Assembly (NCBI GenBank): GCA_963796455.1
Contig: CAWCLO010000001.1
Location: 359,372 to 423,371 of the forward strand
Reading direction: 5' to 3'
DNA: 64,000 bases
From: Candidatus Sulfomarinibacteraceae bacterium
Lineage (GTDB): Bacteria > Acidobacteriota > Thermoanaerobaculia > Thermoanaerobaculales > Sulfomarinibacteraceae
A program made the translations under genes and the position numbers. The notes below the pieces were generated by a model. It saw nothing but the letters and a program-made list of their open reading frames with translations, searched no databases and was not told the origin of the DNA. Shown piece after piece: positions 8,453 to 53,242 of the stretch. Numbering within the stretch: position 1 is the first letter of the stretch; every line of letters begins with the position of its first letter.

Positions 8453-8548
8453 ATCGCCAGTCGATCTGTCCGAGATTGGAGAACCAGGGTCCATATGGCA
8501 GAGGGGCGGAGGGGCAGAGGGGCTAGATGCTGGATGCTGGATGCTGGA

Positions 8549-9172
8549 TCACTCTTGTCCAAGATAAAGTCTCAGACAGCGATCAGGGACGGCGGCAGCG
8601 ATCAGCGTCAGCGACAGGGAACAGCGATCAGCGTTCAGCGTTCAGCGTCAGCGTCAGCGTCAGCGAACAGTAGTCAGCGTCACGTTTGATTGGTATGGAG
8701 CACTGAAATCAAGACTTTGGGTTGAGTAAACGCCATGTCATGGCACGGACTTGATCGAAGGCCTTCGTCGCTTCACCGGCTCCGTTCGGGCTGATCGCCT
8801 CGGCGTGGGCGAGGAGCTGCAAGTGGTTGTCGACCTCTTTGGCCGAGGCGTAGGCGATTCTCCAGTGGTTCGACCGGTCTCTACCGACTCGGCCGCCCAC
8901 CGGCTACCCCTTCCTTTGAACGATCCGGAGGTGGCCGCTTCGTCGCCTGTACTCCTGACCGCTGCCGCTGGATACTGACCGCCGTCCCTGACCGCTGTCT
9001 CTGTTCGCTGTTGCCTGTCGCTGCCGCTGGACACTGTCGCCGCCGCTGCAATTCGGACGCGGGCACGGGCACAGGCACGGGCAACCGCGAACCGGATATG
9101 CCGAAAACCAACCCATAAACCACGTGTTGTCATGTGGGAAACTCCAGGTGACGATCTATTTTGGACAGCGGT
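8549..9172. mobile_element. TIR-bounded four-helix-bundle element, copy A (deletion derivative)
   Basis: Left end CACTCTTGTCCAAGATAAAGTCTCAGACAG. Right end GACGATCTATTTTGGACAGCGGTG, its imperfect inverse. The interior has a CAGCG-rich arm, a truncated four-helix gene, a CGCTG-rich arm and a conserved ~125-nt module. Confidence 0.65.
8709..8900 (-). pseudogene. truncated four-helix-bundle protein (23S rRNA IVS / Avd-like), C-terminal half only
   Basis: 63-aa ORF GGRVGRDRSNHWRIAYASAKEVDNHLQLLAHAEAISPNGAGEATKAFDQVRAMTWRLLNPKS. It aligns to residues ~65-128 of the intact copy at 12547-12900. Confidence 0.75.
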
Positions 9173-9288: not shown

Positions 9289-9441
9289 GATGTCATCCTG
9301 AGGGGAGCCCCGCCTTGTCACGGCGCAGCCTGAAAGGCGAAGCCGGAAGGGGCGTAGTCGAAGGATCTATGGGATGAATGGAACACCTCAGTCCGCAGAT
9401 CCTTCGACTTCGCGCCAGGGGCGCTTCGCTCAGGATGACAT
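9289..9441. repeat. long palindromic unit PE1 (GATGTCATCCTGAG ... CTCAGGATGACAT)
   Basis: Outer arms GTCATCCTGAGxGGAGC / GCTTCGCTCAGGATGAC. Inner arms GTAGTCGAAGGATCT / AGATCCTTCGACT. A second copy lies at 21280-21400 in the same orientation. Confidence 0.8.
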
Positions 9442-9464
9442 CTTGAACGACAGTTCCGTTCCCG

Positions 9465-9540: not shown

Positions 9541-9700
9541 CTCCTCTGCTCCTCTGCTCCTCTGCTCCTCTGCTCCTCTGCTCCTCTGCTCCTCTGCTCC
9601 TCTGCTCCTCTGCTCCTCTGCTCCTCTGCTCCTCTGCTCCTCTGCTCCTCTGCTCCTCTGCTCCTCTGCTCCTCTGCTCCTCTGCTCCTCTGCTCCTCTG
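9541..9700. repeat. perfect microsatellite (CTCCTCTG)x20
   Basis: 160 bp with no mismatch, ending 37 bp upstream of the ATG at 9738. A short copy of the same word lies at 21483-21498. Confidence 0.97.
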
Positions 9701-11406: not shown

Positions 11407-11793
11407 TCAGCCTCTGGCAACCGCCCGGTGCACCAGATATGCCACCAACGCCATCGCGCCATCGGCAAAGCCGGAGAACCACACGGACCACGGGGTGTCG
11501 GCAATCAGCGATCCACCGATGAGAAAGACAAAGGCCGAGCTCTTGGCGATCAGCAACATATTGATGGTCCCATGTTGTTTGTACTCCACCACATATCCGG
11601 CCGCGAGCACGAAGTGAAACGCCCCCGCCTGCCAGATGAAGAAGATCGGATCAGCGCCGTCCCAACCGGCAAAAGCCACCGCCCATTCGGAAAAGAACAT
11701 CAGCATGATGCCGACGATGAAGCTGTGGAGGGCGATCAGACCGATGAGGATCTTTTCGTGCGTTGTGGTCAGTTTCAAGGCCATCATGCCCAC
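11407..11793 (-). CDS. small integral membrane protein (about 4 TM), function unknown
   Basis: 128 aa with hydrophobic segments. 10-nt overlap with the end of the protease gene suggests co-transcription. Confidence 0.55.
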   Translation of the reverse strand: MGMMALKLTTTHEKILIGLIALHSFIVGIMLMFFSEWAVAFAGWDGADPIFFIWQAGAFHFVLAAGYVVEYKQHGTINMLLIAKSSAFVFLIGGSLIADTPWSVWFSGFADGAMALVAYLVHRAVARG

Positions 11794-12308
11794 CAGATAT
11801 CGAGTTCGAGGGGAGGATCTCGACGTACGGCGGGACAGCCGAGTCTCTCGAGTTCAGCGAGCACCGTTTCAGTAACCGCGGGAACCGCATTTTGCACGGC
11901 ATCTGTCAGCGCGGTGCCCTGCCCGGTTGTCTCAGGCACGACTCCGACGAGGAGAATTTCATCCGGACTCGAGTCCGAAAATTCGGTCGCCATGAGTGCC
12001 TCGCGAAGACCCGGCTCATGGGGGCTCATACGGGAAGGGGGTGGCGTCGAGACGATCTCTCCGTCGCGAAGCAGACGCAGGCTGCCAGGTTCCTGCTTGC
12101 CACTGATCGTGTCGATCACAATCACCATTCGGGCATCCGCCAGGTAGGGCGTGAGATCCATCCCCGGGGTCCCGAGGTCGATCACCTCGACACCCTCTGG
12201 AAACTCGTACCCGGCCTCGAGGACCTTGATCGTGTAGGGCCCGAGACCGTCGTCTGTACACAAAATGTTACCGACACCGAGAATGCGGACGGGCTTGGTC
12301 TCAATCAT
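11784..12308 (-). CDS. hybD: [NiFe]-hydrogenase maturation endopeptidase (HybD/HyaD family)
   Basis: ILGVGNILCTDDGLG, DLGTPG and VIVIDT motifs. I chose ATG 12308 (MIETKPVRILGVGN); the ORF-track start at 12434 lies in repeat DNA. Confidence 0.85.
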   Translation of the reverse strand: MIETKPVRILGVGNILCTDDGLGPYTIKVLEAGYEFPEGVEVIDLGTPGMDLTPYLADARMVIVIDTISGKQEPGSLRLLRDGEIVSTPPPSRMSPHEPGLREALMATEFSDSSPDEILLVGVVPETTGQGTALTDAVQNAVPAVTETVLAELERLGCPAVRRDPPLELDIWWA

Positions 12309-12421
12309 CCGATGATTGTGCCAGAGCGGTGGGGTGATGGATAGTGCAGATATTCGAGTTCTCGGATCGGATGATCGATCCTCGGCGCTGGATACTGGAT
12401 GCTGGATGCTCGTTTCTGGAT

Positions 12422-13208
12422 CACCCTTGTCCAAGACAGAGTCTCAGACAGCAACCGGGGACAGGGACGGGGAACGGCGGACAGCGTCAGCGAACGGTTG
12501 TCAGGGTCAGCGATCAGCTATCAACAGCAGCGACAGACAGCAGCGCTCACCTTTTCGGGTTCAAGAGCCGCCAGGTCATCGCACGGACCTGATCGAACGC
12601 CTTCATCGCTTCACTGGCTCCGTTCGGGCTGATCGCCCCGGTGTGGGCGAGGAGTTCCAAGTGGCTGTCGACCTCTTTGGCCGAGGCGTAGGCGATTCTC
12701 CAGTGGTTCAACCGGTCTCTACCGAAACGGCCGTGGCCTTCTGCAAGGTTCGCAGGGACTGAACTCGCCGATCGGACGACCTGATCGGCTATGGATTTCA
12801 GCGGAGCCGGAACCCTCATCACGAGTTTGATCGCGATGCCTGCTGCTTCGAGTGCTTTCGAGTGGGCAACGAGGTTGGTGTTCGTGGCGGCGTTGGACAT
12901 GGTCACCTCCGGGTCGTTCATGCCCATACCCACAAGCCGGTGTGGTGGCCGATGTCAAGGATGCCCTGCACCCTGCCTGTCCTTGACATCGGCCGCCCAC
13001 CGGCTACCCCTTCTGTTGAACGACCCGGTGGTGGCCACTTCGTCGCATGTACTCCTGATCGCTGCCGCTGAACACTGATCGCTGATTGCTGTTCTCTGTC
13101 GCTGCTTCCTGTCGCTGCCGCTGGACACTGTCGCTGTCGCTGATTCCTGTTGACTGCCCCTGCCCCTGCCTCTGAACGCTATCCGAGACCCTTTCTCGGA
13201 CAAGAATG
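12422..13208. mobile_element. TIR-bounded four-helix-bundle element, copy B (intact gene)
   Basis: Left end CACCCTTGTCCAAGACAGAGTCTCAGACAG. Right end GCTATCCGAGACCCTTTCTCGGACAAGAATG, its inverse. CAGCG/CGCTG arms flank a complete four-helix gene. It lies between the hybC terminator and hybD. Confidence 0.65.
12547..12900 (-). CDS. four-helix-bundle protein (23S rRNA intervening-sequence protein / DGR Avd-like family)
   Basis: 117 aa from ATG 12900 (GGAGGTG 5 nt upstream). MSNAATNTNLVAHSKALEAAGIAIKLV...SASSVPANLAEGHGRF...HWRIAYASAKEVDSHLELL is the family pattern as I recall it. Confidence 0.75.
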   Translation of the reverse strand: MSNAATNTNLVAHSKALEAAGIAIKLVMRVPAPLKSIADQVVRSASSVPANLAEGHGRFGRDRLNHWRIAYASAKEVDSHLELLAHTGAISPNGASEAMKAFDQVRAMTWRLLNPKR

Positions 13209-13239
13209 ATGCCGCATCCAGTATCCGGCATCCAGCATC

Positions 13240-13267
13240 AAAAAAAGCCGGGGGCGAAGCCCCCGGC
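13240..13267 (-). terminator. rho-independent terminator after the hydrogenase large subunit
   Basis: Minus strand reads GCCGGGGGCTTCGCCCCCGGC followed by TTTTTTT, 22 nt after the stop at 13290. Confidence 0.8.
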
Positions 13268-13289: not shown

Positions 13290-14990
13290 TTACAGCACTC
13301 TCACCTTCGACTTCTCGTTGCCTTCCGTATCGTGGGTGTGGATCGCACACGCCAGACACGGGTCGAAGGAGTGAATGGTCCGCAAGACCTCGAGCGGCCG
13401 TTCTTCGTCAGCGATCGGGTTGCCGACCAGCGACGCCTCGTAGGGCCCCATCCGGTCGTTTCCGTCACGCGGCCCGGCATTCCAGGTCGAAGGAACAACG
13501 CACTGATAGTTTTTGATCTTGCCGTTTTCGATGACGCACCAGTGCGACAGGGTGCCGCGCGGCGCCTCGTGGAAACCGAATCCCTGGATCTCACCCGCCG
13601 GGAACTCGAATGGGGTGAAGATATCGGTGTCGCCCGATGCGATGTTGGCAACCAAAGCCTCCCAATGGGCGAGGGCCTGGTGAGCGATAACCCGTGCGCG
13701 AATGGCCCGGGCCGCGTGGCGTCCAAGAGTCGAATGCAGCACGGCCGGAGTCAGCTTGGCACCCGCGATGCTGCCCGCAACGTCGAGGAACTCGAGCGCG
13801 AACTTGGTGGTCATCTCGTCGCCGGCTGCCAGGGCGGCGAGCACCTGAGCGAGCGGTCCAACCTGCATCGGTTCGTCGTTGAAACGCGGTGCTTTGACCC
13901 ACGAATAGCGGCCGTTGTAATCGTACTCGGAGTACGCCGGGACGGTGTCCTCTTCCCACGGATGTTTCTGCCAGTCGCCGTCGTACCACGCATGAGCGAT
14001 CGATTCGGCGACATTGTCGCGGAAAAGAGGATCGTTGAACGATGTGATGGCCTGGAAGCTGCCCAGGTCGGCGTTCATGATGACTCCGCCAGGCATCTGG
14101 AACTGGGTGCCCTCGGCATTCAGCGGCAGTTCAGGAACCGACAGGTAGTTGGTGACACCGGCGCCGTAGCCGAGCCACGGAGCATACATGGCGCCGATCG
14201 CGGCCACGTCGGTGAAATAGACCTGGTCGATAAAGGTCTTGACCTCTTCCAGATAGCCTTTGATCTGATAGAGCTTCGCCATATTGAGCGTCGCCTCGTT
14301 GTCGAGGTTGATGGCATTGGCCACACCACCGACAGCGAGATTCTGGATGTTGGGAGTTTTGGAACCCAGCACCGTGACGACCTTGTTGGCGATCTTCTGG
14401 ACCTCGAGAGCCTGCAGGTAGTGCGAAACTGCCAGCAGATTCACATCCGGCGGCAGATCCATCGCCGGGTGGCCCCAATAACCGTTGGTGAAAATACCAA
14501 GCTGGCCTTTGGAGACGAAGTCTGCAACCTTGGCCTTGACGGCCGCAAGGTCCTTCTCGCCGTTACCGGGCCAGTCGGACAGCGACTCAGCAAGGCGTGC
14601 CGTGGTTCTCGGATTGCCGTCGAGGGCCGACACGACGTCAACCCAGTCGAGCGCCGACAGGTGGTAGAAGTGGACAATGTGGTCGTGCAGCGAGTGCGCC
14701 GAAATCAATAGATTGCGGATCAACTGGGCGTTAAGCGGCGGGTTGATCTGGAGCGCGTTCTCAACCGATCGCACCGATGCGATCGCATGAACTGTCGTGC
14801 ACACACCGCAGATGCGCTGGGTGAAGACCCAGGCGTCTCTCGGATCGCGGCCTTCGAGAATCTTCTCGATGCCGCGCCACATCTGACCGGAGGACCAGGA
14901 ATTGGTGACCTTCCCCCGGTCGACCTCGACGTCGATGCGCAAATGACCCTCGATGCGAGTGATCGGGTCTACAGTGATCGTTTTGGCCAT
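13290..14990 (-). CDS. hybC: [NiFe]-hydrogenase large subunit, group 1 (Hyb-type context)
   Basis: RIEGHLRIDVEV, L1 motif RICGVCTTVH, and C-terminal DPCLACAIH plus a 15-aa extension (protease substrate). ATG 14990 is preceded by GAAGGGGGGG. The ORF-track start 15059 overlaps the upstream gene. Confidence 0.93.
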   Translation of the reverse strand: MAKTITVDPITRIEGHLRIDVEVDRGKVTNSWSSGQMWRGIEKILEGRDPRDAWVFTQRICGVCTTVHAIASVRSVENALQINPPLNAQLIRNLLISAHSLHDHIVHFYHLSALDWVDVVSALDGNPRTTARLAESLSDWPGNGEKDLAAVKAKVADFVSKGQLGIFTNGYWGHPAMDLPPDVNLLAVSHYLQALEVQKIANKVVTVLGSKTPNIQNLAVGGVANAINLDNEATLNMAKLYQIKGYLEEVKTFIDQVYFTDVAAIGAMYAPWLGYGAGVTNYLSVPELPLNAEGTQFQMPGGVIMNADLGSFQAITSFNDPLFRDNVAESIAHAWYDGDWQKHPWEEDTVPAYSEYDYNGRYSWVKAPRFNDEPMQVGPLAQVLAALAAGDEMTTKFALEFLDVAGSIAGAKLTPAVLHSTLGRHAARAIRARVIAHQALAHWEALVANIASGDTDIFTPFEFPAGEIQGFGFHEAPRGTLSHWCVIENGKIKNYQCVVPSTWNAGPRDGNDRMGPYEASLVGNPIADEERPLEVLRTIHSFDPCLACAIHTHDTEGNEKSKVRVL

Positions 14991-15003
14991 CAGGCCCCCC
15001 CTT

Positions 15004-16209
15004 CTAATGAGCCGCCTCGGCCGGACGCGTGCCGCCGAGGATCGGGTAGCGTTTGACAATGACGATGTAGAGGAAGATCTCGAACGCGATCACGCCCAGG
15101 GTGATCAGGAGTTCGAGGGTGGTCGGGAAGTACGACCAGTTGTCTCCCGGATTGTATGCCACGATGTATGCATCGAACCGGTAGAGTCCTCCGGCGAGCA
15201 TGAACAGGATCGATGCCTTGAATATGGTCGAAAACTTCATGTTCCCTTTGGACCGCATGAGCATGACCATCGGCGCAACGAAGAGGGCGATCTCGATCCA
15301 GAACATAAGGCTCAGGAAGCCCGAAGTGAACATCAGCATCGTCTTCCCGCTGATGATGAGATCGGTGAATCGAATCAACAGATACAGACCGGTGACGACC
15401 ACCATCGCACCTGAAAGCGAGATCAACATCTCGTCTTCGCGCACGCGGTTGAAGGCCTTGCTCGAAATCGCGGACTCCCAGACAACCACCGCATATCCCA
15501 TTCCCACGCAGGAAACGAGGAAGAGGAGCGGGATCCAGGGAGTGTTCCACAGCGGGTGGAGCTTCCAGCCGGCGAGCAGCATCAGGGTACCGAGCGACGA
15601 CTGGTGCATGGTCGGAAGCAGCACGCCAAGGGCGATGATCCAGATCAGGGCCTTGTCATAGAACTTGAGACCGAACTTGGCGAATTTCACGAGTGAAGAG
15701 TTCTTGGATGTGGCTTCCCATTTTTCGAGAAATGCCGGACCGAGCTCGATCCACAACACACCCACGTAGGCCATGACGCACAGCGCCACCTCGAGGAGTG
15801 CGGAGTTCCAGTTGTAAGAACCCATGTCCGGGAATCCGCCCATTGGGATTCGCCAGACGCCCCACCAACGACCGACATCAATGACGATCGAGAGTCCCGC
15901 CATCGAGTAGCCGAGTGCACTGGTCAGCAGAGCAGGCCGCACCAGCGGGTGGTACTTGCCTTTGTTGAGGATGTAGGCCAAAAGGGCGACCGCATAACCG
16001 CCGCAGGCGAGCGCAGTGCCGGTGACCACGTCAAAAGCGATCCAGATGCCCCAGGGATACCCATCGGTGAGACCCGAGACAACGCCGATTCCAAAGAGGA
16101 AGCGGTATGCCAGGATCAGCACCCACAGCCCGAGGAAGATCGCCAGGAACCGGGTGAACCGGTTGTAGATAACGGGGCCGCCGACGGGTTCAGCGCGGTG
16201 CTCACTCAT
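15004..16209 (-). CDS. hybB: NrfD/PsrC-like integral membrane subunit of hydrogenase (HybB-like)
   Basis: About 400 aa and highly hydrophobic with many TM segments. It sits between the FeS protein and the large subunit, as in hybOABC. ATG 16209 overlaps the hybA stop. Confidence 0.8.
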   Translation of the reverse strand: MSEHRAEPVGGPVIYNRFTRFLAIFLGLWVLILAYRFLFGIGVVSGLTDGYPWGIWIAFDVVTGTALACGGYAVALLAYILNKGKYHPLVRPALLTSALGYSMAGLSIVIDVGRWWGVWRIPMGGFPDMGSYNWNSALLEVALCVMAYVGVLWIELGPAFLEKWEATSKNSSLVKFAKFGLKFYDKALIWIIALGVLLPTMHQSSLGTLMLLAGWKLHPLWNTPWIPLLFLVSCVGMGYAVVVWESAISSKAFNRVREDEMLISLSGAMVVVTGLYLLIRFTDLIISGKTMLMFTSGFLSLMFWIEIALFVAPMVMLMRSKGNMKFSTIFKASILFMLAGGLYRFDAYIVAYNPGDNWSYFPTTLELLITLGVIAFEIFLYIVIVKRYPILGGTRPAEAAH

Positions 16210-21279: not shown

Positions 21280-21400
21280 GATGTCATCCTGAGCGGAGCG
21301 CCTTTGGCGCGTAGTCGAAGGATCTGCGTCTCGGAATCTTTGTGTTCCGTCTCATAGATCCTTCGACTCGGCCGTCGAACGGCCTCGCTCAGGATGACAT
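21280..21400. repeat. palindromic unit PE1, second copy
   Basis: GATGTCATCCTGAGCGGAGCG...GTAGTCGAAGGATCTG...AGATCCTTCGACT...CGCTCAGGATGACAT. Confidence 0.8.
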
Positions 21401-24780: not shown

Positions 24781-25195
24781 TAGTAACTCGATACTCGATG
24801 CTCGATACCGGATCGATTCGCGTTCCGGAGAAACCGCAGATCACGCAGATGAACGCAGATCACGCATCGCAATTGCCAGCGATAGAAAACGTCCCGATGG
24901 GTCAATTCGATGGCAAACCCCACACTCCCACGTCACAACCAACAAGACACCAAGGAACACCGTTGAGTTCATCGTGCCCGACAAGAGAGCTCTGTCAGAA
25001 TCGGAGTCCGTTCTTCATCGGAAATCGATAAGAGAATTTGAGGTCAGTATGTACTTGGCGATTTCTTGGTGTTCTTGGTGTCTAGGTGGTGAATGATTCG
25101 CCACCATCCAGTGGGAACTCCCTGGATAGAGCGATAGCGATTGCGACGGTCAATCTGCGTTCATCTGTGTGATCTGCGGTAACTCCGGTTGACCC
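24781..25195. repeat. nested inverted-repeat mosaic (CTCGATR words, PE2 motif pair, CACCAAGRA words, GCGATAGCG word)
   Basis: PE2 GGAGAAACCGCAGATCACGCAGATGAACGCAGATCACGC at 24827-24865, and its inverse at 25153-25186. Inner inverted pair GACACCAAGGAACACC / GGTGTTCTTGGTGTC. Confidence 0.75.
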
Positions 25196-31396: not shown

Positions 31397-31511
31397 GAGG
31401 GCCCGGTCGCTCGATGCTCGATGCTCGATTCTGGATGCTGGATCGTGTCGCGTTTCGGAGAAACCGCAGATAGCGCCGATGAACGCAGATCAGGCATCCA
31501 GCATCCAGTAT

Positions 31512-32237
31512 CACTCTTGTCCAAAACAGTGTCTCGGACAGGGTTCAGGGACAGCGACGGAGAACGGTAGACAGCGGCAGCGAACAGTTGTCGGCGGCAG
31601 CGACAGGGTCCAGCGTCAGCGACAGGCAGCAGCGAACAGGGACAGGGAACAGCGGTCAGTGTTCAGTGTTCAGCGACGGAGCGCAGCGGCAGCAGTCTGG
31701 AATTCAGGCGACGCAGTGGCCACCTCCGGGTCGTTCAACAGAAGGGGTAGCCGGTGGGCGGCCGAGTTGGTAGAGACCGGTCGAATCACTGGTGAATCGC
31801 CTACGCCTGGGCGAAAGAGGTCGACAGCCACTTGCAGCTCCTCGCCCACGCCGGGGCTATCAGCCCGAACGGAGCCAGTGAAGCGATGAATGCCTTCGAT
31901 CAGGTCCGTGCCATGACGTGGCGTTTACTCAACCCAAAATCTTGATTTCAGGGCTTCATACCAGTCAAACATGACGCTGCCTCCTGTTCGCTGACGCTGA
32001 ACACTGATCGCTGTTCGCTGTTCGCTGTCGCTGCTCACTGTCGCTGCTCACTGTCGCTGTCCCTGTTCGCTGTTGCCTGTCGCTGACGCTGGACACTGTC
32101 GCTGCCGCTGTAATTCGGACGCGGACGCGGACACGGACACGGGCAACCGAGAACCGGATATGCCAAAAATCAACCTGTGAACCTCGTGGTGTCAGGCGGG
32201 CAACTTCACCTGACAATCTGTTTTGGACAACAGCGGT
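31512..32237. mobile_element. TIR-bounded four-helix-bundle element, copy C (deletion derivative, cargo inverted)
   Basis: Left end CACTCTTGTCCAAAACAGTGTCTCGGACAG. Right end CTGACAATCTGTTTTGGACAACAGCGGT. It has the same arms and 125-nt module as copy A, but the gene is on the plus strand. Confidence 0.65.
31754..31945 (+). pseudogene. truncated four-helix-bundle gene with in-frame stop
   Basis: GGRVGRDRSNHW*IAYAWAKEVDSHLQLLAHAGAISPNGASEAMNAFDQVRAMTWRLLNPKS. TGA at 31793-31795 replaces the Arg codon of copy A. Confidence 0.75.
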
Positions 32238-32251
32238 CCCTGCCCCCCTTC

Positions 32252-32284
32252 AAAAAAAAAGGGCGCCCGGATGGGCGCCCTTTT
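32252..32284 (-). terminator. rho-independent terminator after citrate synthase (structurally bidirectional)
   Basis: Plus strand reads A9-GGGCGCCCGGATGGGCGCCC-TTTT. On the minus strand the stem is followed by T9. Confidence 0.85.
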
Positions 32285-32302
32285 GTATTGAATTGAAGGA
32301 AC

Positions 32303-36974: not shown

Positions 36975-37037
36975 CTGCGCTCATCGCACTATGACGCAAC
37001 AAAAATGATGCAACCACAGGGTCTTGGAGGCCGCACC

Positions 37038-40000
37038 ATGAGACGCATTCTTAGTTTCATTTTCCTTCTCACGCTCATTTCCGCACCTGCCATCGTCGGC
37101 GCTCAGCAGGCTGGCGACAACATTAATGTCCTACCGTTGGTTCCGAACGTCGATTCGTCCGACCCAGGCTATGATCCCGATTGGTTTCTGAAGGGTGACG
37201 GCTACCTACAGCGTCAGCTGGAGCCGACAATCGCCGCATCGACCCGCAACCCGGACCACCTGCTCGCGTTCTTCAACGATTACAGGGCGGTGGATGTGGG
37301 TGACGACATCGGACTCGGCGAAGGCGAAATCGGATCGGCCGCCCTCAAGACCCTCAACCTCATGCTGGCTTCGGTGCCATGGCTGCAAATTCCAGACCTT
37401 GGTATCACGATGATTCGCCCGCAGCCGATGGCGGCGTCCGAAGCATGGGTGGGTATGAGTCGATCTTATGATGGCGGCCTGACCTGGAGTGGCGGCTTCT
37501 TGCCCGGCGCACCCTTCGACGGCTCCCCCGCATCGCTCGATTCTCCCGTCTATGGCCTCGAGGCGGCCACCGATCCGGTGACCGTCTGCGGTCCGTGCGG
37601 CCAATTCTATACTGTCTTCGTCGCCTTCACTCGCGGCGGCCAGAGCAAGCTCGCGGTCGCGCGTTATGAGGACCTCAACAATGACCCCGGCGGCGACACC
37701 CTGGTGTACAAGGGCACGACCGTTGTCGACTCTGGAGCCAACGCGAATTTCGGGCATTTCCTCGACAAGCCCCATATCGCCATTGATGTCTGGCGCAATG
37801 AATCATCAAAAGCGGGAATTGAAAAGAAGAAAAAGCCGAAACCCTCGGAAGACAACGACGATCCCTGCGCGCATCGCGTTTACGTGAGCTACAGCACCTT
37901 CACCGGAAAACCGAAACCCAACAAATTCCAGAGCAAACTCTACGTTGCGACGTCGGAGGATGGTGGCGAGACTTTCAACAGGACAAAAATCAACAAGAAC
38001 TTCGGTCAGAACCAGGGATCGGCCCTCGCTGTCGATCCACGCGAAGGAACTCCGACGACAACCGGGGGCGGAACCCTCTATGCGTTCTGGCGTCATTTCA
38101 ACGGTCCTGACAGCATCGTCATGACCAAATCGCTCGATTTCGGCGGTTCGTGGAGCAGACCGGAGCAGATCATCGGCAGCACGCCGATGGCGCCATTCGA
38201 TCAGCCGACGATTTCGACCCAGGCCGTCTACGATTTCGGTTTGTTCGACCCCATCACCGGTTTGCCCGAAGTTGCTTTTCGTTCGAACGGATTCCCCACC
38301 GCCACCGTCGCGACCGACCCCCAAGGTGATGCAACCGTATTTGTAGGTTGGCAGGAGCGGGTTGGCGGTGACGGCTACCCGCTCGAAAACGGAACGCCCC
38401 GGATCGTGCTGATGCGCTCCGACGACGACGGCGATTCGTGGACGGACATCGAAGGCAACCCCGGTCAGCGGAAAGCCGTCGATATCGGCTGGCGCGACCT
38501 CGAGAGTGATCCAAGTGCTCCCGAGCCAGGATTTGGGACTGTGCCTCTCGAGCGCCCCTCGGGACCCCAGATCCAACCCGCCCTCTCATTTGCCGGCGGG
38601 CGATTGATGATGGTGTACTCAGAGTCCCGCGGTCGGATCGCCAACTACGGCAACCCTGATCTTGAAGAAATCCTGACGTCGCAGTTCAACCCGGACGCAG
38701 ACATCGATTCGCAAACCGGTTTCATCAGCGGCTACGATCGACTGATGGATCATCGCGCCGCGCTGCTCGACCCCGCGACCGGTGAACTGTTGTCGACGGT
38801 GCAGGTTTCGCGCTATCCCTTGAGGGCAGGTTCAGACCTTGCCGACGGCGAGGACTATGAGGACGTCGCGCCGATCAACCCGCCGTGCTCGCCGGACTAT
38901 GACGCATACTTCAACGCGGGTGAACTCAACCCCTGCGTGCGCCAACTCAACCGCGTCAACGCAGTGACCTCGGCCGCCGGAACCTCTCCATTTGTCGGGG
39001 ACTACCCGGGGATCCATCCCTTCGTCCAGTTCGTGACCGACTCCGAAGGCAACTGGCGGTGGGCGACCGATCCCGATGACCTCACAACCCGCGGTTTCCA
39101 CACCATCTGGGCCGACAATCGCCACCTGATTCCGCCGCAAAACCCGTCACCTGGAAGTCCATGGGTCGAATGGCAGGACTATCCCAACTATGACGCACCC
39201 GGGTCAGGCGATCTTTCCTGTGCCAACCCGGGATCGCGCAACACCGATGTGTTGACCTCGAGGGTTGATGCCGAGCTGGTCATCAATTCGCCGACGACCT
39301 TCAAGGCGATCGGCGCCACCGGGGCTAGCTTTCCGTTTTCTATCGGCAACAAGACGGGCGAAACCAGAACCTACCAGATCAGCATCGAACCGGATGATGG
39401 CAATGCCTCATTCCTGTCGCGCTCGGTGGTGACCACGGCCTCGGTCGAGATCTTTCCCTTCTCGAGCACCTCGCAGGTGGTCTATGTTTCGGGGCCGACG
39501 ACCGACCCCATCAAGGTCACTGTCCAGGAGACCGGCGGTTGCGGCAGCGATTGCCAGAGCGGCACCATCGTCTTCAACGCCCACCAGAGCATGGCCTCGG
39601 AACAACTCGCTTCGGAGGAGTTCTTCAACCCGACGGTCACGCCCGACGCGTTCGTCATCAATCAGAATCTGGAAAACGCTTTCGTGATCAACCAGGGTGC
39701 TGAAAACGCATTCGTCATCAATCCAACAGTTGACAACGCCTTCGTCATCAACGGCGGCACGGAGAATGCGTTCGTTATCAATGCATTTGTCATCAACGCA
39801 TTCGTCATCAATGCATTTGTCATCAACAGCGGCCTCCCGGCAAAGGCAGGGGAAGAGCCCGAGTACTACGATATCCACAACATCATCGACACAACCTGGA
39901 CGGTGACTCCAGGTGAGAGCACCGATGCCTCGAGCTTTCTGCCAATCATCAATATCGACAAGGCGGAGCAGTTCCTCGACAAGTACGTCTTCCAACTCAT

Positions 40001-41444
40001 CGTCCACAAGGGCGCGCTCTACGGTTCCCCGAGTTTGGAGGGTTGCGACTCAACCAATGTGAACCAGCCGCAGATCCTCTCGACCTTTGCGCAGGGCCCG
40101 GGCACCAACCCTGCCGACGCCTTTGTCATCAACCCGGCGCCAAAAAATGCCTTCGTCATCAACCAGGGATTTCCCGGCGATGCCTTTGTCATCAACTCGA
40201 CATTTACCGTCGCACCATCCGACGACGGCCCGGACAACTCAAAGAACGGCTCCCTGAGCAACGACGGCACGCTCAAAGCTCCGCGCGCGCCGGACACCGT
40301 CAACGTCACCCTGCGGGCCTATCAGATCGTGCCTGACGAAGAGTTGGGTGAGTTCCGCTATAACCCGTTCCCCGCGGACGACCCGAACAATCCGAACCCA
40401 GGCACGGCCGGCGATCGCGCATCCTTCGCCGCATCCTCACACAACTGCGACACCCTGGATCCCTTGTCAGAGTGTTTCGAGTTCAACGCACCGGACCTCG
40501 TGCCCATCGACGTTGATCCAACCGAAATCCTACCGACTCTGGTCGGCGAAAGCTTCGACTTTCCGTCCTGGACCCTGCTCAACCAGGGAACGACGGATGG
40601 CAACGCCGAGAACGACGATCTTCGTCATGGCTTCTATCTCTGTCCGCGCTGGGTTGTGGCAGATGCTCCGGAGGATCTGACGCTCGACCTTTCGCCGTGC
40701 ACACAGTTCATTGACGAAGGAGAGATCCTGTTCACCACCGACAACTCCCTCCCGCCTGCGGGTGAAGATGATTTCGATGCAACCACGTTGAACATCCCGG
40801 AAGGAACCCTGCCGGGTCTCTACGACGTGGTGCTCTACGTAGACGATCTCTTCCAGGTCTCAGAGTTCATCGAAGTCAACAATTACGCATCGGTACCCAT
40901 CATCGTCATCGACGAGTTGCTCGAGAACGGCGGTTTCGAGACGCCGGACGTGGCCGCCGGAGCCTGGGCCCTCTTCGAAAACGGGACGGATGGGCTCGAT
41001 TGGAGCTTCGAGTGGGTGAATTGCGGTGGCTGCGAAACCGATCCACTGCTCGAGATTCAGAGCAGCGGCGTGGTGATCACCACACCGGACGGCGGTCAGG
41101 TCGCCGAACTCGACTCCGACTTCGGCGGTGCGGAACCGGGCAGCCAGACGAGTCTGCGCCTGTACCGCGATTTCGACACCTGCGAGGGAGTCACCTACAC
41201 ATTCGACTATTCGTGGGCAAAACGCACCGGCTCGGATTTGATGACCGTCTCATGGGACGGATTTGTCTTCGCGACACACGGTGCAGGCGCTCCGACCCTG
41301 CAATGGAATGTGGAGAGCTGGGAACTCGATGGCGACGGATCGACCATTCGTCTCGAGTTCGTTGAGACCGGACCGGCCGATTCGTTGGGCATGCTGCTCG
41401 ATGCCGTGAGCCTGATCGGACCGCTTTGCCCGAACGTTGAATAA
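37038..41444 (+). CDS. giant secreted protein: BNR/Asp-box (sialidase-like propeller) + AFVIN repeat region + C-terminal DUF642/CBM-like domain
   Basis: Signal peptide MRRILSFIFLLTLISAPAIVGA after GGAGG. Asp-boxes SYDGGLTWS, SEDGGETFN, SLDFGGSWS and SDDDGDSWT. 11 AFVIN motifs. C-terminal LLENGGFETP... domain. Confidence 0.8.
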   Translation: MRRILSFIFLLTLISAPAIVGAQQAGDNINVLPLVPNVDSSDPGYDPDWFLKGDGYLQRQLEPTIAASTRNPDHLLAFFNDYRAVDVGDDIGLGEGEIGSAALKTLNLMLASVPWLQIPDLGITMIRPQPMAASEAWVGMSRSYDGGLTWSGGFLPGAPFDGSPASLDSPVYGLEAATDPVTVCGPCGQFYTVFVAFTRGGQSKLAVARYEDLNNDPGGDTLVYKGTTVVDSGANANFGHFLDKPHIAIDVWRNESSKAGIEKKKKPKPSEDNDDPCAHRVYVSYSTFTGKPKPNKFQSKLYVATSEDGGETFNRTKINKNFGQNQGSALAVDPREGTPTTTGGGTLYAFWRHFNGPDSIVMTKSLDFGGSWSRPEQIIGSTPMAPFDQPTISTQAVYDFGLFDPITGLPEVAFRSNGFPTATVATDPQGDATVFVGWQERVGGDGYPLENGTPRIVLMRSDDDGDSWTDIEGNPGQRKAVDIGWRDLESDPSAPEPGFGTVPLERPSGPQIQPALSFAGGRLMMVYSESRGRIANYGNPDLEEILTSQFNPDADIDSQTGFISGYDRLMDHRAALLDPATGELLSTVQVSRYPLRAGSDLADGEDYEDVAPINPPCSPDYDAYFNAGELNPCVRQLNRVNAVTSAAGTSPFVGDYPGIHPFVQFVTDSEGNWRWATDPDDLTTRGFHTIWADNRHLIPPQNPSPGSPWVEWQDYPNYDAPGSGDLSCANPGSRNTDVLTSRVDAELVINSPTTFKAIGATGASFPFSIGNKTGETRTYQISIEPDDGNASFLSRSVVTTASVEIFPFSSTSQVVYVSGPTTDPIKVTVQETGGCGSDCQSGTIVFNAHQSMASEQLASEEFFNPTVTPDAFVINQNLENAFVINQGAENAFVINPTVDNAFVINGGTENAFVINAFVINAFVINAFVINSGLPAKAGEEPEYYDIHNIIDTTWTVTPGESTDASSFLPIINIDKAEQFLDKYVFQLIVHKGALYGSPSLEGCDSTNVNQPQILSTFAQGPGTNPADAFVINPAPKNAFVINQGFPGDAFVINSTFTVAPSDDGPDNSKNGSLSNDGTLKAPRAPDTVNVTLRAYQIVPDEELGEFRYNPFPADDPNNPNPGTAGDRASFAASSHNCDTLDPLSECFEFNAPDLVPIDVDPTEILPTLVGESFDFPSWTLLNQGTTDGNAENDDLRHGFYLCPRWVVADAPEDLTLDLSPCTQFIDEGEILFTTDNSLPPAGEDDFDATTLNIPEGTLPGLYDVVLYVDDLFQVSEFIEVNNYASVPIIVIDELLENGGFETPDVAAGAWALFENGTDGLDWSFEWVNCGGCETDPLLEIQSSGVVITTPDGGQVAELDSDFGGAEPGSQTSLRLYRDFDTCEGVTYTFDYSWAKRTGSDLMTVSWDGFVFATHGAGAPTLQWNVESWELDGDGSTIRLEFVETGPADSLGMLLDAVSLIGPLCPNVE
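39645..39827 (+). repeat. in-frame AFVIN repeat cluster (8 units; the last 4 are a 4 x 15-bp tandem array with only synonymous differences)
   Basis: DAFVINQNLENAFVINQGAENAFVINPTVDNAFVINGGTENAFVINAFVINAFVINAFVIN. A second cluster of 3 units lies at 40116-40196. Confidence 0.95.
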
Positions 41445-46002: not shown

Positions 46003-49000
46003 CTAGTGCACAACCCAGGACCAGCGGTCGGCGAGCCCGGTTTCGAAATGCCCTTTGAAAAACAGTCGCTTCCCACCGCAACCGGTAGCGTGCAGGGTCG
46101 AAATTTCGTTCGCAGAAAGTGCCCGATTGTAGATCGCGAGGTCGTCAATAAGCCCATCGATGACATCCCAACCGTCATGCCCACCGATGTAAACAGTGGG
46201 CATCCCCGGAGGCAATGCCTGATCAACGACGACCGCAGTAGCATCCGGTACACCGTCGATAAACCCGGTCATTACATCGCTTGTGGCGTCGTAGGTGATT
46301 GCCACGTGGTGCCAACTTTGGGCCGAAAGCTGCAGCTCGCCGATAAAAACCGCTCCGTAGTCGTACCAGCACAGCCGACCATCGTTCAGAAAGAACCCGT
46401 GTTCCGGATCGGCATAAATAGTCGCCCACGGCGGCGTGTTGGTTCCCTGATAGGAGACCCAGCCCTCGACCGTGAAGCTGTCGGCAACGGGGAAATTGGT
46501 CAATGCGACCTGATCGTCAACGGCATCAAACGAAAACGCCTTCCCCGACACGCCGCTCTCGAACGCAACCCCGTTGTCGAGGGTGCAGGAAGACACTCCA
46601 ACCACGTCATCGCCCGAACCATTGGCGGGCCAATACGCAACCATGCCGGGCGGCAAGCCCGCTATCGGGCCACCAAAGACCCCTGCCACCACGCCCCTCG
46701 TTCGATTCGCCTCGGTACCGAGGTCCGAGCACGTGAAGGATCCCGTACCGGTATTGATACAAAGTTGGTTTCTCTCGTCCGTGTTGGCGAGAACCACGTC
46801 GAGGTCGTTGTCGCCGTCGATGTCTGTCAACGCGACCCCACTGCTCGCGTTGACATCGGGCGAAAGGTCACCGCACGAAAACGAAGCTGTCCCATCGTTC
46901 AAGCAAAGGCGATTGGTCTGTCCCTCGTTCGCGATCACGATATCGAGTCCGCCCGAACCGTCGACATCCCCTATCGCCAGCCCTCGGCTGAAATCATCTC
47001 TCGAGCCCAGATCAGCGCAACTGAAAACTGCAGAACCGTCGTTCAAACACACACGGTTCCGAGACCACTCATTCGAAAAGACGATATCGAGACCGTCTTG
47101 ATCATCGAGGTCGGCCACGACAACCCGAAGGCTCCTGTCAGCATCCGTACCGATATCGCCACAGGAGAACCCGCCGCTTCCATCGTTCAGGCACAATCGG
47201 TTGACTCCGCCCGACTCAGCTGGGTGTCCCCAGTTTGCGAATACGAGATCGGCCCCATTGATTCCGTCAATGTCCGCACGCGCAACACCCACATTGCCGT
47301 CTGCGACCTCGCTGATGTCGCTGCACGAGAAGACGCCGGCACCTTCATTGAGACAAATCCGGTCCCTTTGCCGGTTATTGGCGAATGCCGCGTCGAGATC
47401 ATCGTCGCCGTCGAAGTCCCAGAGAACGACACCGCGCGACATGTTTTCGTCAGGACTCACGTTCCGACAGGTAAATGATCCTGCACCGTCGTTGAGGCAC
47501 ACACGATTCGTCTCGCCATCACCGTTCGCCAGGCCCTGGTTCGCGATCACCATGTCGATCCCATTGCCGCAATCAATCGGACCAAGGGCAATCACCCAGC
47601 TTTCCCGAGCGTCTGTGCTGATATCCGTGCAGCTCAACCCTCCGACACCATCGTTGAGACAGATCCGGTTCTCCTGGTATTCATTGGCAAAGACGAGATC
47701 GACAATTTTGGGGTCGTAGGAGTGATCGCGATTGAAGGTCGCTATGCAGCTCGTATCAACCACCATCTCGGCCGTCGCATCGTCACAGTCAGAATCACCC
47801 GACCATCCGGCAAAAACCGAATCGCTGTCCGGCCGCGCTGTGAGCTTGACCTGTGTTCCGGCATCGTACGGTTCCACACAATCCGATCCGCAATCAATCC
47901 CCGGCGGAGTGGTGGTCACTGCGCCGCCGCCGTCCCCCGCGAGAGTGACCGTCAGAGTGAACGATTCAAGAGTGGTGACGGTGAAGGTATCTGAAACACC
48001 TCCGATCGTGAGAACCAAATCGGTTGCGATGAGGTTTTCGGACGACGAGGTCTGACGCACGCGCACTTCCTGGCCATCACCGGCGGTTCCGGAATCCGAC
48101 GACCACCCGCCGCCAGCCACCGAGTACTCACAGGACGAACTCGTGCAGGATTCGATGGCAATCGACACCGCCGTGTCGATTCCGGCAACGGTGACAGCAT
48201 CCGACTCCACCGTCGAGTCCCGCGGCACGTCAACCCGGTCGTTGAACACAAAACCATCGGGGGTCGCGTCACGGAGCACACATTTGCCTGAGCAGCCCTG
48301 CTGGTAGAGGGCATAGATCTCGTGCCCGGTCAGCACGCCGTCGTAGACAGAAAGTTCGTCGACCTTGCCATCCAACACATCCCAGCCATCGTGACCGCCA
48401 ATGCTGACGTATGGCAAACCCGGGGGAAGTGCACTGCCGGCAAAGGTGGACGTACCGTCTGCCTCGCCATCAACGTATCCGGTAAAGGTGCTCGTATTCG
48501 AGTCGTATGTGATCGCAATGTGGTGCCACTCCTGGGCTGGTATGGCGATATCGCCGACGAATTGATTCCCGAACTCGTACCAGTTGACCCTTCGATCAAG
48601 CAGAAAAAGCCCGTGATCGCCATCGGCATAGATGGTTGCCCACGGCGAATCGTTGGTGCCGACGTAGTACACCCAGGCTTCGATTGTGAAATTGTCCGCT
48701 GCGGGAAAGCTCGTGAAGGTTACCTGGTCGTTCATACCGTCGAAGCTGAAGGCCTGTCCCGCCTTGCCGTCCGCGAAGGTCGCACCGCCCTCGAGCACAC
48801 CCTCGTAGCTGCCGACCACATCCTTCGCCGATAAGTCGGCGGCCCAGTAGGCAACGAGATTGGCCGGAGCGCAGCTCGTTGTGTTCCCGAAGACCCCGGT
48901 CACAACACCCCGGGTGTGGTTGGTGTCCGTGCTGACATTGCTGCACAAAAATGAACCGGATCCGTCGTTCAGGCAGACCTGGTTCTCCTGGTCCAGGTTC

Positions 49001-50034
49001 GCGAACAAAGCATCGAGATCACCATCCTCATCGACATCCGCGAGTGCGACACCGGTGCTCGCGTTGACGTCCGGACTGGCATCGACACAACCCAGACCTC
49101 CCGATCCGTTATTGAGGCAGATCTCGTTCTTGACGCCGATATTGGCGAAGAGGACATCGGGACCGTTGGCTCCATCGAGGTCTGCGATCGCCAATCCGTA
49201 GCTGAAGTCCTCCCTGGCGCTGACATCGCCGCACGTGAAAGCTCCCAAACCATTGTTGAGGCAGATCCTGTTCTTCTCCCCATCGGTCGAGATCACAGCG
49301 TCAATGCCGTTCGTACCATCGATATCATCGAGAGCGACCCGCAGGCTGGAAAAAGTGTCCGCGCTGACGTCGCTGCACGAAAAGGAACCAGATCCGCTGT
49401 TGAGGCAGACTCGATCGGCTTCGCCGTAGTTGGCGAAGACCAGATCGAGACCATTGACACCGTCAAGATCGGCGGCGGCCACACCGACAGAGCTGTTGGT
49501 GTCGTCGTTGAGATCGACGCAGGTGAAGCTCGCCTTCCCGTCATTGAAGCACAACCGGTTTTCCTGACCGTTGTTCGCCGTGGCGGCGTCGAGATCGCCA
49601 TCGTCATCAAAATCGCCGAGAACAACACCTCGGGTTGCGCCGACATCACCGTTGACCGCGGCGCAGGTGAGGGAGCCGGTGCCATCATTGAGACAGATTT
49701 CGTTCGCGGGGCCCGCGTTCGCCACAAAGATGTCCAAGCCGCTGCCGCAGTCGAGCGGTCCGACGGCGGCCGTCCAGGTCGACAACTCGGACAAACTCAG
49801 GTCGGAGCAGGCGAAGTCACCTGCGCCATCACCAACGCAGATCCTGTTCGTCTGCCCGTCGTTCCCGAAAACGGCTTCAACGTGAGGCGTCTGAATCACA
49901 ACTTTTTGCCGGTCGGTGTTTTTTGACTGATTGCCGGCGCTACCGGTCACCCCGCGTTCCTCGGCACCGAGAGCAACCCACGGGCATAGCAGCACCAGCA
50001 CCAACACCAAAAAGTCGAAGCACCTTCTGATCAT
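46003..50034 (-). CDS. giant secreted protein: two tandem modules of FG-GAP/VCBS-like repeats + LamG (ConA-like lectin) domain
   Basis: Start MIRRCFDFLVLVLVLLCPWVALGA after GGGGAGGTGGGG. About 14 repeats of the type NR(I/V)CLNDG.GSF.C.D...D...S.GVA..D.DGD.DLD. Two LamG-like blocks (VAYW...AFSFDG..D.V....FP.AD.FT.E.WV...). Confidence 0.8.
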   Translation of the reverse strand: MIRRCFDFLVLVLVLLCPWVALGAEERGVTGSAGNQSKNTDRQKVVIQTPHVEAVFGNDGQTNRICVGDGAGDFACSDLSLSELSTWTAAVGPLDCGSGLDIFVANAGPANEICLNDGTGSLTCAAVNGDVGATRGVVLGDFDDDGDLDAATANNGQENRLCFNDGKASFTCVDLNDDTNSSVGVAAADLDGVNGLDLVFANYGEADRVCLNSGSGSFSCSDVSADTFSSLRVALDDIDGTNGIDAVISTDGEKNRICLNNGLGAFTCGDVSAREDFSYGLAIADLDGANGPDVLFANIGVKNEICLNNGSGGLGCVDASPDVNASTGVALADVDEDGDLDALFANLDQENQVCLNDGSGSFLCSNVSTDTNHTRGVVTGVFGNTTSCAPANLVAYWAADLSAKDVVGSYEGVLEGGATFADGKAGQAFSFDGMNDQVTFTSFPAADNFTIEAWVYYVGTNDSPWATIYADGDHGLFLLDRRVNWYEFGNQFVGDIAIPAQEWHHIAITYDSNTSTFTGYVDGEADGTSTFAGSALPPGLPYVSIGGHDGWDVLDGKVDELSVYDGVLTGHEIYALYQQGCSGKCVLRDATPDGFVFNDRVDVPRDSTVESDAVTVAGIDTAVSIAIESCTSSSCEYSVAGGGWSSDSGTAGDGQEVRVRQTSSSENLIATDLVLTIGGVSDTFTVTTLESFTLTVTLAGDGGGAVTTTPPGIDCGSDCVEPYDAGTQVKLTARPDSDSVFAGWSGDSDCDDATAEMVVDTSCIATFNRDHSYDPKIVDLVFANEYQENRICLNDGVGGLSCTDISTDARESWVIALGPIDCGNGIDMVIANQGLANGDGETNRVCLNDGAGSFTCRNVSPDENMSRGVVLWDFDGDDDLDAAFANNRQRDRICLNEGAGVFSCSDISEVADGNVGVARADIDGINGADLVFANWGHPAESGGVNRLCLNDGSGGFSCGDIGTDADRSLRVVVADLDDQDGLDIVFSNEWSRNRVCLNDGSAVFSCADLGSRDDFSRGLAIGDVDGSGGLDIVIANEGQTNRLCLNDGTASFSCGDLSPDVNASSGVALTDIDGDNDLDVVLANTDERNQLCINTGTGSFTCSDLGTEANRTRGVVAGVFGGPIAGLPPGMVAYWPANGSGDDVVGVSSCTLDNGVAFESGVSGKAFSFDAVDDQVALTNFPVADSFTVEGWVSYQGTNTPPWATIYADPEHGFFLNDGRLCWYDYGAVFIGELQLSAQSWHHVAITYDATSDVMTGFIDGVPDATAVVVDQALPPGMPTVYIGGHDGWDVIDGLIDDLAIYNRALSANEISTLHATGCGGKRLFFKGHFETGLADRWSWVVH

Positions 50035-50784
50035 TTCCCCACCTCCCCGAGTCGTCCCGAAGTTCATTATTGATTCCATAGGTGACACCACCTGAGTAAT
50101 GGGAATCGCCAAACTGTGACAAGAAAGACCAAAACCGCGTGTCGCGGATCAAATTTGCGAGCAGGGACTTGTTTGAACCGAATTCGAGGAGGATGCCGGT
50201 AATTGAAATACCTGAAAATTCCAGGTGCGACACCTCGGAATCTGAGACGCAGACAAGATGTGGGCCGAAATAGCCCTGATCTGCCGCGATGCTTGTTATC
50301 AGGACATTCTCTCGATCGTCTGCATACACGAGCGTGTCGGCAAGATCCGCGACAATCCCGAAACCGGCTCTATCCACCGTCACCCCTTCCGCATCGATAT
50401 TGAGCGCGGTGCCGGCGAACACCTCCGGACACACCATTTCCTGATCGAAGACGACGGTTTCGCCCGGGCGTGGTGAGGACCGTTCGACAGCGTGGCGTTG
50501 CTGAGGTGGCTGGACGGACAATCAAAAAAACGACCGTGCTTCGACCGAACGGACCTGTATGGACCTCACGGAACATGAAGAACTTCCTCGTCAAGACCAT
50601 CTGACAGAATGGAGAAAAAACTTCGTATTGTGAAGGGTCAGAGACTTATGATGATGTCTTTGCGTTGAGGCGACTATATCGGGGAAAAGTGGGTCATCAA
50701 CACGAAAGATCATGAACCAAGACGAACCCTGCGAACGGAACCTTACGAGGAACACCGGCATTCAGAATCCCCAGCCCCTGAGAA

Positions 50785-52474: not shown

Positions 52475-52515
52475 CCTGATCCTGGATGCTCGATACTGGA
52501 TGCTCGATGCTCGAT

Positions 52516-52970
52516 CACTCTTGTCCAAGACAGAGTCTCGGATAGCGCGCAGGGACAGCGGCAGAGAACGGTCGACGGAGTCAGCGGCAGCGTTCAGTGT
52601 TCAGGTTCAGCGATCAGCGGCCGGGACAGTGAACAGCACTCATTTCTTCGGGGCTCCGGCCTTGGTGGTGCGGCCGTCTCGGCCGCACGGTGTGCAGGCG
52701 AGACGCCTACACCACAACGGCTGTTCCTTATGTTGAAAGACTCGGAGGTGGCCATACCGCCGCATGAACTCCAGACTGCTGCCGCTGATCGCTGAACACT
52801 GATCCCTGCTCACTGTCGCTGCCGCTGCCGCTGGACACTGTCGCTGACGCTGCAATTCGGGATCGGGTACGGGTACGGGCCAATCGCGAACCGGATATGC
52901 CAAAAACCAACCCGTAAACCTCGTGTTGTCAGGCGGGTAACTTCATGACAATCTGTGTTGGACAGCTGTG
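52516..52970. mobile_element. TIR-bounded element, copy D (no four-helix gene; alternative hairpin cargo)
   Basis: Left end CACTCTTGTCCAAGACAGAGTCTCGGATAG. Right end CATGACAATCTGTGTTGGACAGCTGTG. It keeps the arms, a leader remnant (TTGAAAGACTCGGAGGTGGCC) and the 125-nt module. The cargo is replaced by two GC hairpins (GCGGCCGTCTCGGCCGC; GTGCAGGCGAGACGCCTACAC). Confidence 0.6.
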
Positions 52971-53073
52971 ATCGATTATCCAGTATCCAGTATCTGAATC
53001 GAACCCGGGCGCTTGACACGTTTCCCCACTCGCTGGATACTCGCGTTAGTTCTTTGGCGTACTGACGCTATTG

Positions 53074-53160
53074 CGTTTCCGTGGGGGTGCCCTTCGTCAA
53101 ATGGGCTGAGATCACACCCCTCGAACCTGATCCGGGTCATGCCGGCGGAGGAAATGGAGA
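53074..53160 (+). promoter_or_regulatory. TPP (THI-box) riboswitch
   Basis: UUUCCGUGGGGGUGCCCUUCGUCAAAUGGGCUGAGAUCACACCCCUCGAACCUGAUCCGGGUCAUGCCGGCGGAGGAAAUGG. This matches the thiM-type aptamer core (GGGGUGC, CUGAGA, ACCUGAUCYGGNUNAUGCCRGCG). P1 is UUUCC/GGAAA. It lies 83 nt upstream of the receptor ATG. Confidence 0.88.
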
Positions 53161-53242
53161 CGCCCACCCCCTTGCCGTGGCGCATTTGGAGCGGGCATCC
53201 CTTTTGTACCGGCCCACCCAAAGTATTCGGAGCTACGGACCC

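Follow-up and report, generated by a model that had tools for sequence, protein, structure and literature searches.

A reversed cassette inside a MITE-like repeat element of Thermoanaerobaculia

Introduction

Inverted repeats can turn around the DNA that lies between them, and the known cases include IS- or rrn-mediated chromosomal inversions, the flip-flop of the plastid inverted repeat, and template switching at quasi-palindromes. Among the closest described systems are also the invertons, which include fimS, hin, the invertible promoters of Bacteroides and intragenic invertons (PMC11892184, PMC11602134, bioRxiv 10.1101/2023.03.11.532203). Two further systems bear on the build of the element considered here. 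One is the IVS of the 23S rRNA of Coxiella burnetii, which carries an S23p/PF05635 ORF in the loop of a stem that is cleaved by RNase III (PMC4990558); the other is the bacterial MITE.

The elements described here resemble the IVS in being selfish units of ~0.4-1 kb, with complementary termini predicted to form a long stem and a four-helix-bundle ORF in the loop, with short tandem repeats upstream of this ORF, and with decayed versions of it (PMC4990558). Unlike the IVS, they lie between protein-coding genes, in frames of terminal inverted repeats (TIRs) flanked by heptamer arrays; they reach dozens of copies per genome, and purifying selection acts on those of their genes that are intact (dN/dS 0.15). 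With bacterial MITEs they share the TIRs, the small size, the many intergenic copies without a transposase, the hairpin potential, and the occurrence of deletion derivatives and of empty versions (PMC10969869); they differ from them in that many copies carry a conserved passenger gene, a structured leader, and an inner pair of arms built of repeat arrays.

The stretch of DNA analysed (the window) comprises 64 kb of the genome of a Candidatus Sulfomarinibacteraceae bacterium, and all positions without a locus name refer to it. It holds four copies of one element, A, B, C and D. The original prediction had noticed that the cargo of copy C is flipped relative to its frame and bracketed by inverted repeats of 33 nt, and had proposed either an invertible (flip-flop) segment or recombination between the arms. 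Here we describe the architecture of copy C, the origin of its repeat and its place among related copies, and weigh the possible explanations against each other.

Results

The element family and its copies in the window

The elements follow one order: a left TIR (TIR-L, CACTCTTGTCCAARAYAG...), a left arm of degenerate CAGCG(N1-2) units, the cargo, a right arm of complementary CGCTG units, a module of ~110 nt that is present in only A, C and D among the window copies, and a right terminal inverted repeat (TIR-R). Heptamer arrays, for example of CTGGATG, lie outside the element ends, in direct or inverted order, and a consistent target-site duplication is not seen. The TIR motif occurs seven times in the window against 1.0 expected, and the many copies contain no transposase.

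Copy A (~8548..9170, plus strand) has the common orientation and consists of TIR-L, a left arm (8577-8653), a cargo with a gene remnant on the minus strand (8654-8970), a right arm (8971-9046), and module plus TIR-R (9047-9170). Copy B (~12418..13210, plus strand) has no module; alone among the window copies, it has kept the four-helix-bundle gene intact (12547-12900, 117 aa, on the minus strand). This gene is also the only ORF inside the element. Copy D (~52514..52968, plus strand), again in the common orientation, retains nothing of the gene and only a remnant of its leader (52715-52787, minus strand), in addition to module and TIR-R; of the gene, A and C retain the 3' half (positions 168-349 of the gene model), together with a portion of its leader. 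A Pfam scan and a riboswitch search place the window copies between ordinary chromosomal genes, in neighbourhoods of NiFe hydrogenase and hyp genes, of an HTH_25 gene and citrate synthase, and of a sugar transferase and a TonB receptor under the control of a TPP riboswitch. There is no rRNA in the 64-kb window, and none of its copies is an insertion in helix 25 or 45 of 23S rRNA.

The protein of copy B matches Pfam PF05635 (E 1.5e-15, 57.7 bits against a cut-off of 33.8) and NCBIfam TIGR02436 (E 2.8e-16, 59.7 bits against a cut-off of 24). In the best 80 related loci (see below) 79 genes are intact, with a median pairwise dN/dS of 0.15 at a dS of 0.8; the protein is thus under purifying selection in each copy. 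The leader of the gene (12901-13036, minus strand, in copy B; ~3860-4006 in loci L002-L081) has an invariant outer stem of 15-23 bp (CATGRYCACCTCCGGGTCGTTCA / TGAACGACCCGGAGGTGACCATG), which by its sequence is predicted to bury the Shine-Dalgarno (SD) sequence and the start codon, and an inner stem with compensatory changes, 13 pairs being altered on both sides. Of this leader, no more than the 5' half survives in the truncated copies A, C and D. Rfam holds no family for the leader, the module or the arms, and a search of the literature found no paper describing this element family.

Several other features lie close to the window copies. Copy B is located inside a NiFe hydrogenase cluster, between the gene for the large subunit (13290-15059, minus strand) and that for the HycI maturation protease (11784-12434, minus strand), on the same strand as these neighbours and just past an intrinsic terminator (13247-13267). 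The TPP riboswitch to the right of copy D (53073-53170, plus strand; 69.4 bits, gathering score 54.3) is directly upstream of the gene for the TonB-dependent receptor (53081-55678). Copy A has a perfect tandem array of ~20 units (CTCCTCTG) to its right (9541-9700) and a (GGGAGAAA)n array to its left (8400-8450); an inverted repeat of 49 nt and 92% identity (GATGTCATCCTGAGCG...) joins 9394-9442 with 21280-21328. Directly left of copy C lies a short repeat of 82 nt with CGCAGAT motifs (31417-31498), 85% identical to 24787-24868 and situated between inverted heptamer arrays (31427-31443 and 31496-31512); at its second copy near 24.8 kb, 24825-24881 forms an inverted repeat of 57 nt with 25132-25188. 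Farther away, a repeat with a period of 15/30 nt (ACGCNTTCGTCATCAAC..., 39646-40163) lies inside an ORF of 1479 aa (37005-41444) and is presumably a coding repeat.

Copy C carries a reversed cargo in a direct frame

Copy C (31512-32234, plus strand) lies, according to the Pfam scan, between the HTH_25 gene and citrate synthase. Its TIR-L (CACTCTTGTCCAAAACAG..., 31512..31540, plus strand) pairs with 32218-32233 over 16 nt at 94%, and matches the TIR-L of A at 24/29, of B at 25/29 and of D at 25/27 positions, always directly. Reading on along the plus strand, it is followed by the outer left arm with CAGCG-type units in the native frame (31541..31593), which aligns directly with the left arm of B at 39/45 and of D at 31/37 positions; by the left copy of an inverted repeat of 55 nt (31594..31648); and by the inner left arm (31649..31683). 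Beyond the cargo (31684..32000) come the inner right arm with CGCTG-type units (32001..32053), the right copy of the 55-nt repeat, which is the native outer right arm (32054..32108; direct to A 8993-9046 at 51/54, to B at 47/54 and to D at 42/49 positions), and the module with TIR-R (32109..32234). The last is recognised by nhmmer at 32113-32232 on the plus strand, and matches A 9047-9167 (99/121, 82%) and D (88/103) directly. The inner arms align about equally in either orientation, since the two arms are approximately complementary to one another; the left one matches the left arm of A directly at 24/27 and the right side of A in inverted form at 28/36 positions, the right one the left arm of A in inverted form at 43/53 and the right arm of B directly at 42/47. 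A further inverted match connects A 8609-8653 with C 31989-32033 (91%).

The cargo, by contrast with this frame, is inverted relative to A, B and D: over 317 nt, 288 positions (91%) are identical to the reverse complement of A 8654-8970. It contains the anti-SD half-stem of the leader remnant (31720-31737), a deletion junction (31765/31766), and a gene remnant (31769-31945, plus strand) with an in-frame TGA at 31793-31795; in nhmmer, positions 168-349 of the gene model correspond to 31759-31940 on the plus strand. At the DNA level the cargo thus represents the dead remains of a gene for a four-helix-bundle protein of family PF05635 ("23S rRNA IVS protein", S23p). The ORFs that can be read within copy C were discarded as spurious read-throughs of the repeat arrays.

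The flip of the cargo against its frame, on which the original prediction was built, is confirmed and non-random. The frame runs directly on both sides (A 8993-9167 with C 32055-32229, 86%; A 8516-8620 with C 31478-31582, 68%), and the 33-mers lie exactly at 31596-31628 and 32074-32106, inside the two copies of the 55-nt repeat, differing at one position. The leader remnant of D (52715-52787) is inverted relative to that of C, so that D, like A, is of the common type. With 31644-32062 re-inverted, the global alignment of C to A scores 398 instead of 102. Segment by segment, the frame aligns directly outside the arms and the cargo between them in inverted form, and re-inversion scores best over a plateau at 31626-31698 and 32020-32074, which puts both break points inside the arms, though not at a particular nucleotide, the arms being internally repetitive.

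The 55-nt repeat is a mosaic of both arms

The 33-nt repeat is the core of the 55-nt inverted repeat (31594-31648 / 32054-32108), which is complementary at 52 of 55 positions (95%), with three mismatches today and a longest perfect block of 20 nt. As both arms are low-complexity arrays of CAGCG and CGCTG units, some complementarity between them is to be expected, and related copies were therefore used as an empirical background. The best local arm-arm score is 46 in C, against 22 or less in the three other window copies and 77 related loci; 6320 arm pairs taken across copies have a mean score of 13.7 (sd 3.6) with a 99.9th percentile of 36, and the scores above 36 involve flipped copies alone. 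The near-perfect arm repeat of C is unique among the copies compared, and homologous loci, represented by these 80 other copies, do not conserve it as a recombination site.

Its left copy is not an ordinary left arm. Its sequence corresponds to the outer right arm in reverse complement, at 47/52 (A) and 43/49 (B) positions and likewise in D, its best match to a left arm reaching only 33/40, and the signature CGCTGGAC, otherwise confined to right arms, is found in both repeat copies. The two copies also share derived bases that are unlike the right arms of A, B and D and resemble the left arm of A. This mixture of left and right bases identifies the 55-nt repeat as a homogenised mosaic of both arms; its derivation as an inverted duplication purely of the right arm was considered and rejected, because both copies also carry bases of the left-arm type.

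Pairing between the arms is possible in all copies, as judged from RNA duplex energies (z -1.2 to -7.1), and strongest in C (-159 kcal/mol, z -10.7); in the window copies, where the complementary termini are predicted to form a long stem around the ORF, the energies range from -95 to -159 kcal/mol (z -5.7 to -10.7). The substrate for an exchange between arms is thus common to the whole family, in keeping with the occurrence of two independent flips.

Flipped copies are rare, and C shares recent ancestry with A

About 90 copies were compared, comprising the window copies, 80 loci in MAGs of Thermoanaerobaculia/Holophagae, and metagenome contigs. The 80 loci are the best of 347 stretches in the genome collection, confirmed by tblastn with the B protein as query; they come from a small number of Acidobacteriota MAGs that bear the label Holophagae or Candidatus Sulfomarinibacteraceae (class Thermoanaerobaculia), with one exception labelled Alphaproteobacteria (L025). 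One MAG carries more than 30 full-length copies.

Two of the ~90 copies are flipped, C and L069. Profile searches find the module 5' of the gene in 25 module-bearing copies and 3' of it in C only. A scan of metagenome contigs with the TIR-L pattern gives 21 matching contigs, with 9 further gene-bearing copies, each in the common orientation, and four cassette-free frames. When the flanks upstream and downstream of the gene were compared across 84 copies, L069 was flagged, as were the window copies on account of C, and no others; this comparison replaced an initial frame marker, (CCCGTN)n-CGAAATTGCAGCGG, which was too strict to be informative. Scans of the genome and metagenome contig collections with exact patterns of the module motif returned no match.

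On its left side L069 has the architecture of C: TIR-L and outer arm are fused to a complete upstream arm, leader and full-length gene, the outer arm that normally comes after the gene now lies upstream of it, and the junction is inside the CAGCG array. Its downstream side is degenerate, which makes the history of L069 less clear. As it carries a full-length gene, L069 flipped independently of C.

C itself shares with A an identical internal-deletion junction, in which GGCGGCCGA is joined to GT(C/T)GGTAGAGACC; the truncated copies L006, L082/L087 and L027 have different junctions at nearby microhomologies. C is thus the flipped descendant of an A-type deletion derivative and no old separate lineage, the identical junction and the cargo identity of 91% marking a recent ancestry common to the flipped and the unflipped form. 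Internal deletions of this kind recur independently (window 8885/31766; L006 ~1410; L082 ~1119; L087 ~1011; L027 ~895); all of them remove the start of the gene and end near the same gene position via GTCGG/GGCCG microhomology. The family also includes cassette-free frames of ~260 nt (L084 4685-4940, L085 7704-7960, L093 3500-3752, L101 4584-4840), which consist of TIR-L, ~100 nt of unrelated DNA, an inner TIR-like site, the module and TIR-R, and are flanked by heptamer arrays.

The insertion site in relatives

The site orthologous to that of C (31397-32302) was reached in relatives via homologues of citrate synthase. No counterpart of C was found at this HTH_25/citrate synthase site in L103, L104, L105 or L106. 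In L105 it is empty save for an (AACGTTN)n heptamer array and the terminator. Small elements of an unrelated kind occupy it in L103 and L106, whereas L104 has a PF05635 element there that is full-length but differs in its ends (TTCATCCGGAAT...ATTCCGGATGA). The intergenic site is an insertion hot spot. The array of L105, which stands without an element, shows that heptamer arrays exist independently of it; the array unit varies between genomes. Looking up the exact proteins of the two genes that flank C retrieved one short contig (L001) that terminates within the array of repeats beside the site. Run ERR11523668 carries an HTH_25 protein identical to the neighbour of C.

At one orthologous site, L025 3517-4521 (CALOEL010000007) and L028 3544-4483 (CAVZOK010000003) carry the whole element in opposite orientation, between shared chromosomal flanks (~3.4 kb to either side, 91-93% identical). 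The two elements are closer to paralogues (98-99%) than to each other, so that the pair may reflect either an inversion in place or independent insertion; it was accordingly not counted as evidence of flipping.

Discussion

Copy C is likely to record a rare, fossil inversion that came about by recombination or template switching between the CAGCG and CGCTG arms, and not a programmed flip-flop. The element belongs to a MITE-like family in which a cassette, formed by a PF05635 gene and its structured leader and bracketed by two hairpin-forming arms, is set within a TIR-bounded frame. An A-type copy, already internally deleted, was the ancestor, and the two arms of this single copy would have recombined with each other, either by an intramolecular crossover between inverted repeats or by a replication template switch across the hairpin. 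The exchange would have turned around the cargo together with the inner arms, and heteroduplex repair or gene conversion would have homogenised the outer 55 nt of both arms. If homogenised at the exchange, the 55-nt repeat is a footprint of the event and not a conserved recombination site; and as the cargo was already a dead gene fragment, its inversion would have been neutral. By the standards of E. coli a perfect block of 20 nt is marginal for recombination of the RecA type, although the repeat may have been perfect when the event occurred. The exchange was presumably either of this type or a template switch, presumably with gene conversion, and appears to occur no longer. That part of the original prediction which invoked recombination between the arms is supported by break points within the arms, a deletion junction common to A and C, and a second, independent flip in L069.

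As in other inversions mediated by inverted repeats, a segment is reversed, the break points lie in the repeats, the region of exchange is homogenised, and no dedicated recombinase is needed. Unlike in the inversions between rrn operons or IS elements, the segment of C measures ~400 nt and lies between imperfect 55-nt repeats made of 5-7-nt units, and the event took place inside one small repeat element, with no detectable functional consequence.

The other reading that the original prediction had offered, a working switch, would make C a relative of the invertons, with the arms as recombination sites, the fixed module as promoter, and each flip toggling the gene. Like an inverton, C has a short segment flanked by inverted repeats, here of 55 nt and 95%, and this segment occurs in both orientations relative to a fixed neighbour; both relative orientations thus exist within the family, and in the common one the module is on the 5' side of the gene. 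Unlike in invertons, however, the long repeat is confined to C, with no conservation across ~80 homologous copies, and the flipped state is rare (2 of ~90) and seen between copies, not at one locus. Pfam finds no invertase, nor any other recombinase or transposase domain, in the 30 main ORFs of the window, a set that excludes the large ORFs 37005-41444, 46003-50112 and 57602-61651; consensus scans find no promoter match of the sigma-70 type in C or B. The flipped unit lacks the first half of the gene and has an in-frame stop, so that there is nothing to switch, and its inversion toggles neither a functional promoter nor a coding sequence; where the gene is intact in module-free copies, it is conserved all the same. 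A programmed switch is therefore very unlikely. We consider it slightly less probable still, and highly improbable in itself, that the cassette arms make every member of the family an invertible unit that needs no recombinase and flips at low frequency within populations between a module-proximal and a module-distal state; in that case an Avd/S23p-like four-helix-bundle protein would be under dozens of stochastic switches in the genome, with C and L069 as the two copies caught in the flipped state.

A reversed cargo could also arise without any exchange between arms, if the cassette itself were mobile and had been re-inserted, or independently inserted, into the frame in the reverse direction. 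The same type of cassette is in fact found in other frames, such as those with TTCATCCGGAAT-type ends in L004, L045 and L104, there are frames without a cassette (L084, L085, L093, L101), the whole element is reversed at one orthologous site (L025 against L028), and the site of C is an insertion hot spot. Yet A and C share the frame as well as the deletion junction of the cassette, which indicates that frame and cassette travelled together; the orientation is nearly uniform, at least 34 to 2, which is unexpected under free insertion; and the position of the near-perfect repeat coincides exactly with the outer boundary of the arms, as recombination with conversion explains and insertion does not. 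This origin is thus unlikely, though less so than a switch. The least probable explanation is that the assembly traversed the segment in the wrong direction. An assembly graph leaves the direction of a segment between inverted repeats ambiguous once these repeats are longer than the k-mers or reads, and the short-read contigs of a sample with an identical neighbouring protein do break at the flanking repeat arrays (L001); the repeat of C, however, has 55 nt with three mismatches and an exact block of 20 nt, far below usual read and k-mer lengths. C furthermore differs from A by 9% throughout, and is therefore no chimera of other copies, and an independent flipped copy is present in a separately assembled MAG (L069).

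If the cargo of C was reversed by an exchange between its arms, the inversion itself is of little import; it offers a clean, small-scale case of inverted repeats within an element driving an inversion and leaving a homogenised repeat behind, and a caution that segments flanked by inverted repeats are not all phase-variation switches. The more interesting object is the element family around C, an IVS-like cassette that occurs outside rRNA, in dozens of copies per genome and in MITE-like frames, in Thermoanaerobaculia/Holophagae. This family provides a tractable system for studying the function of the widespread PF05635 proteins and the way in which such cassettes spread.
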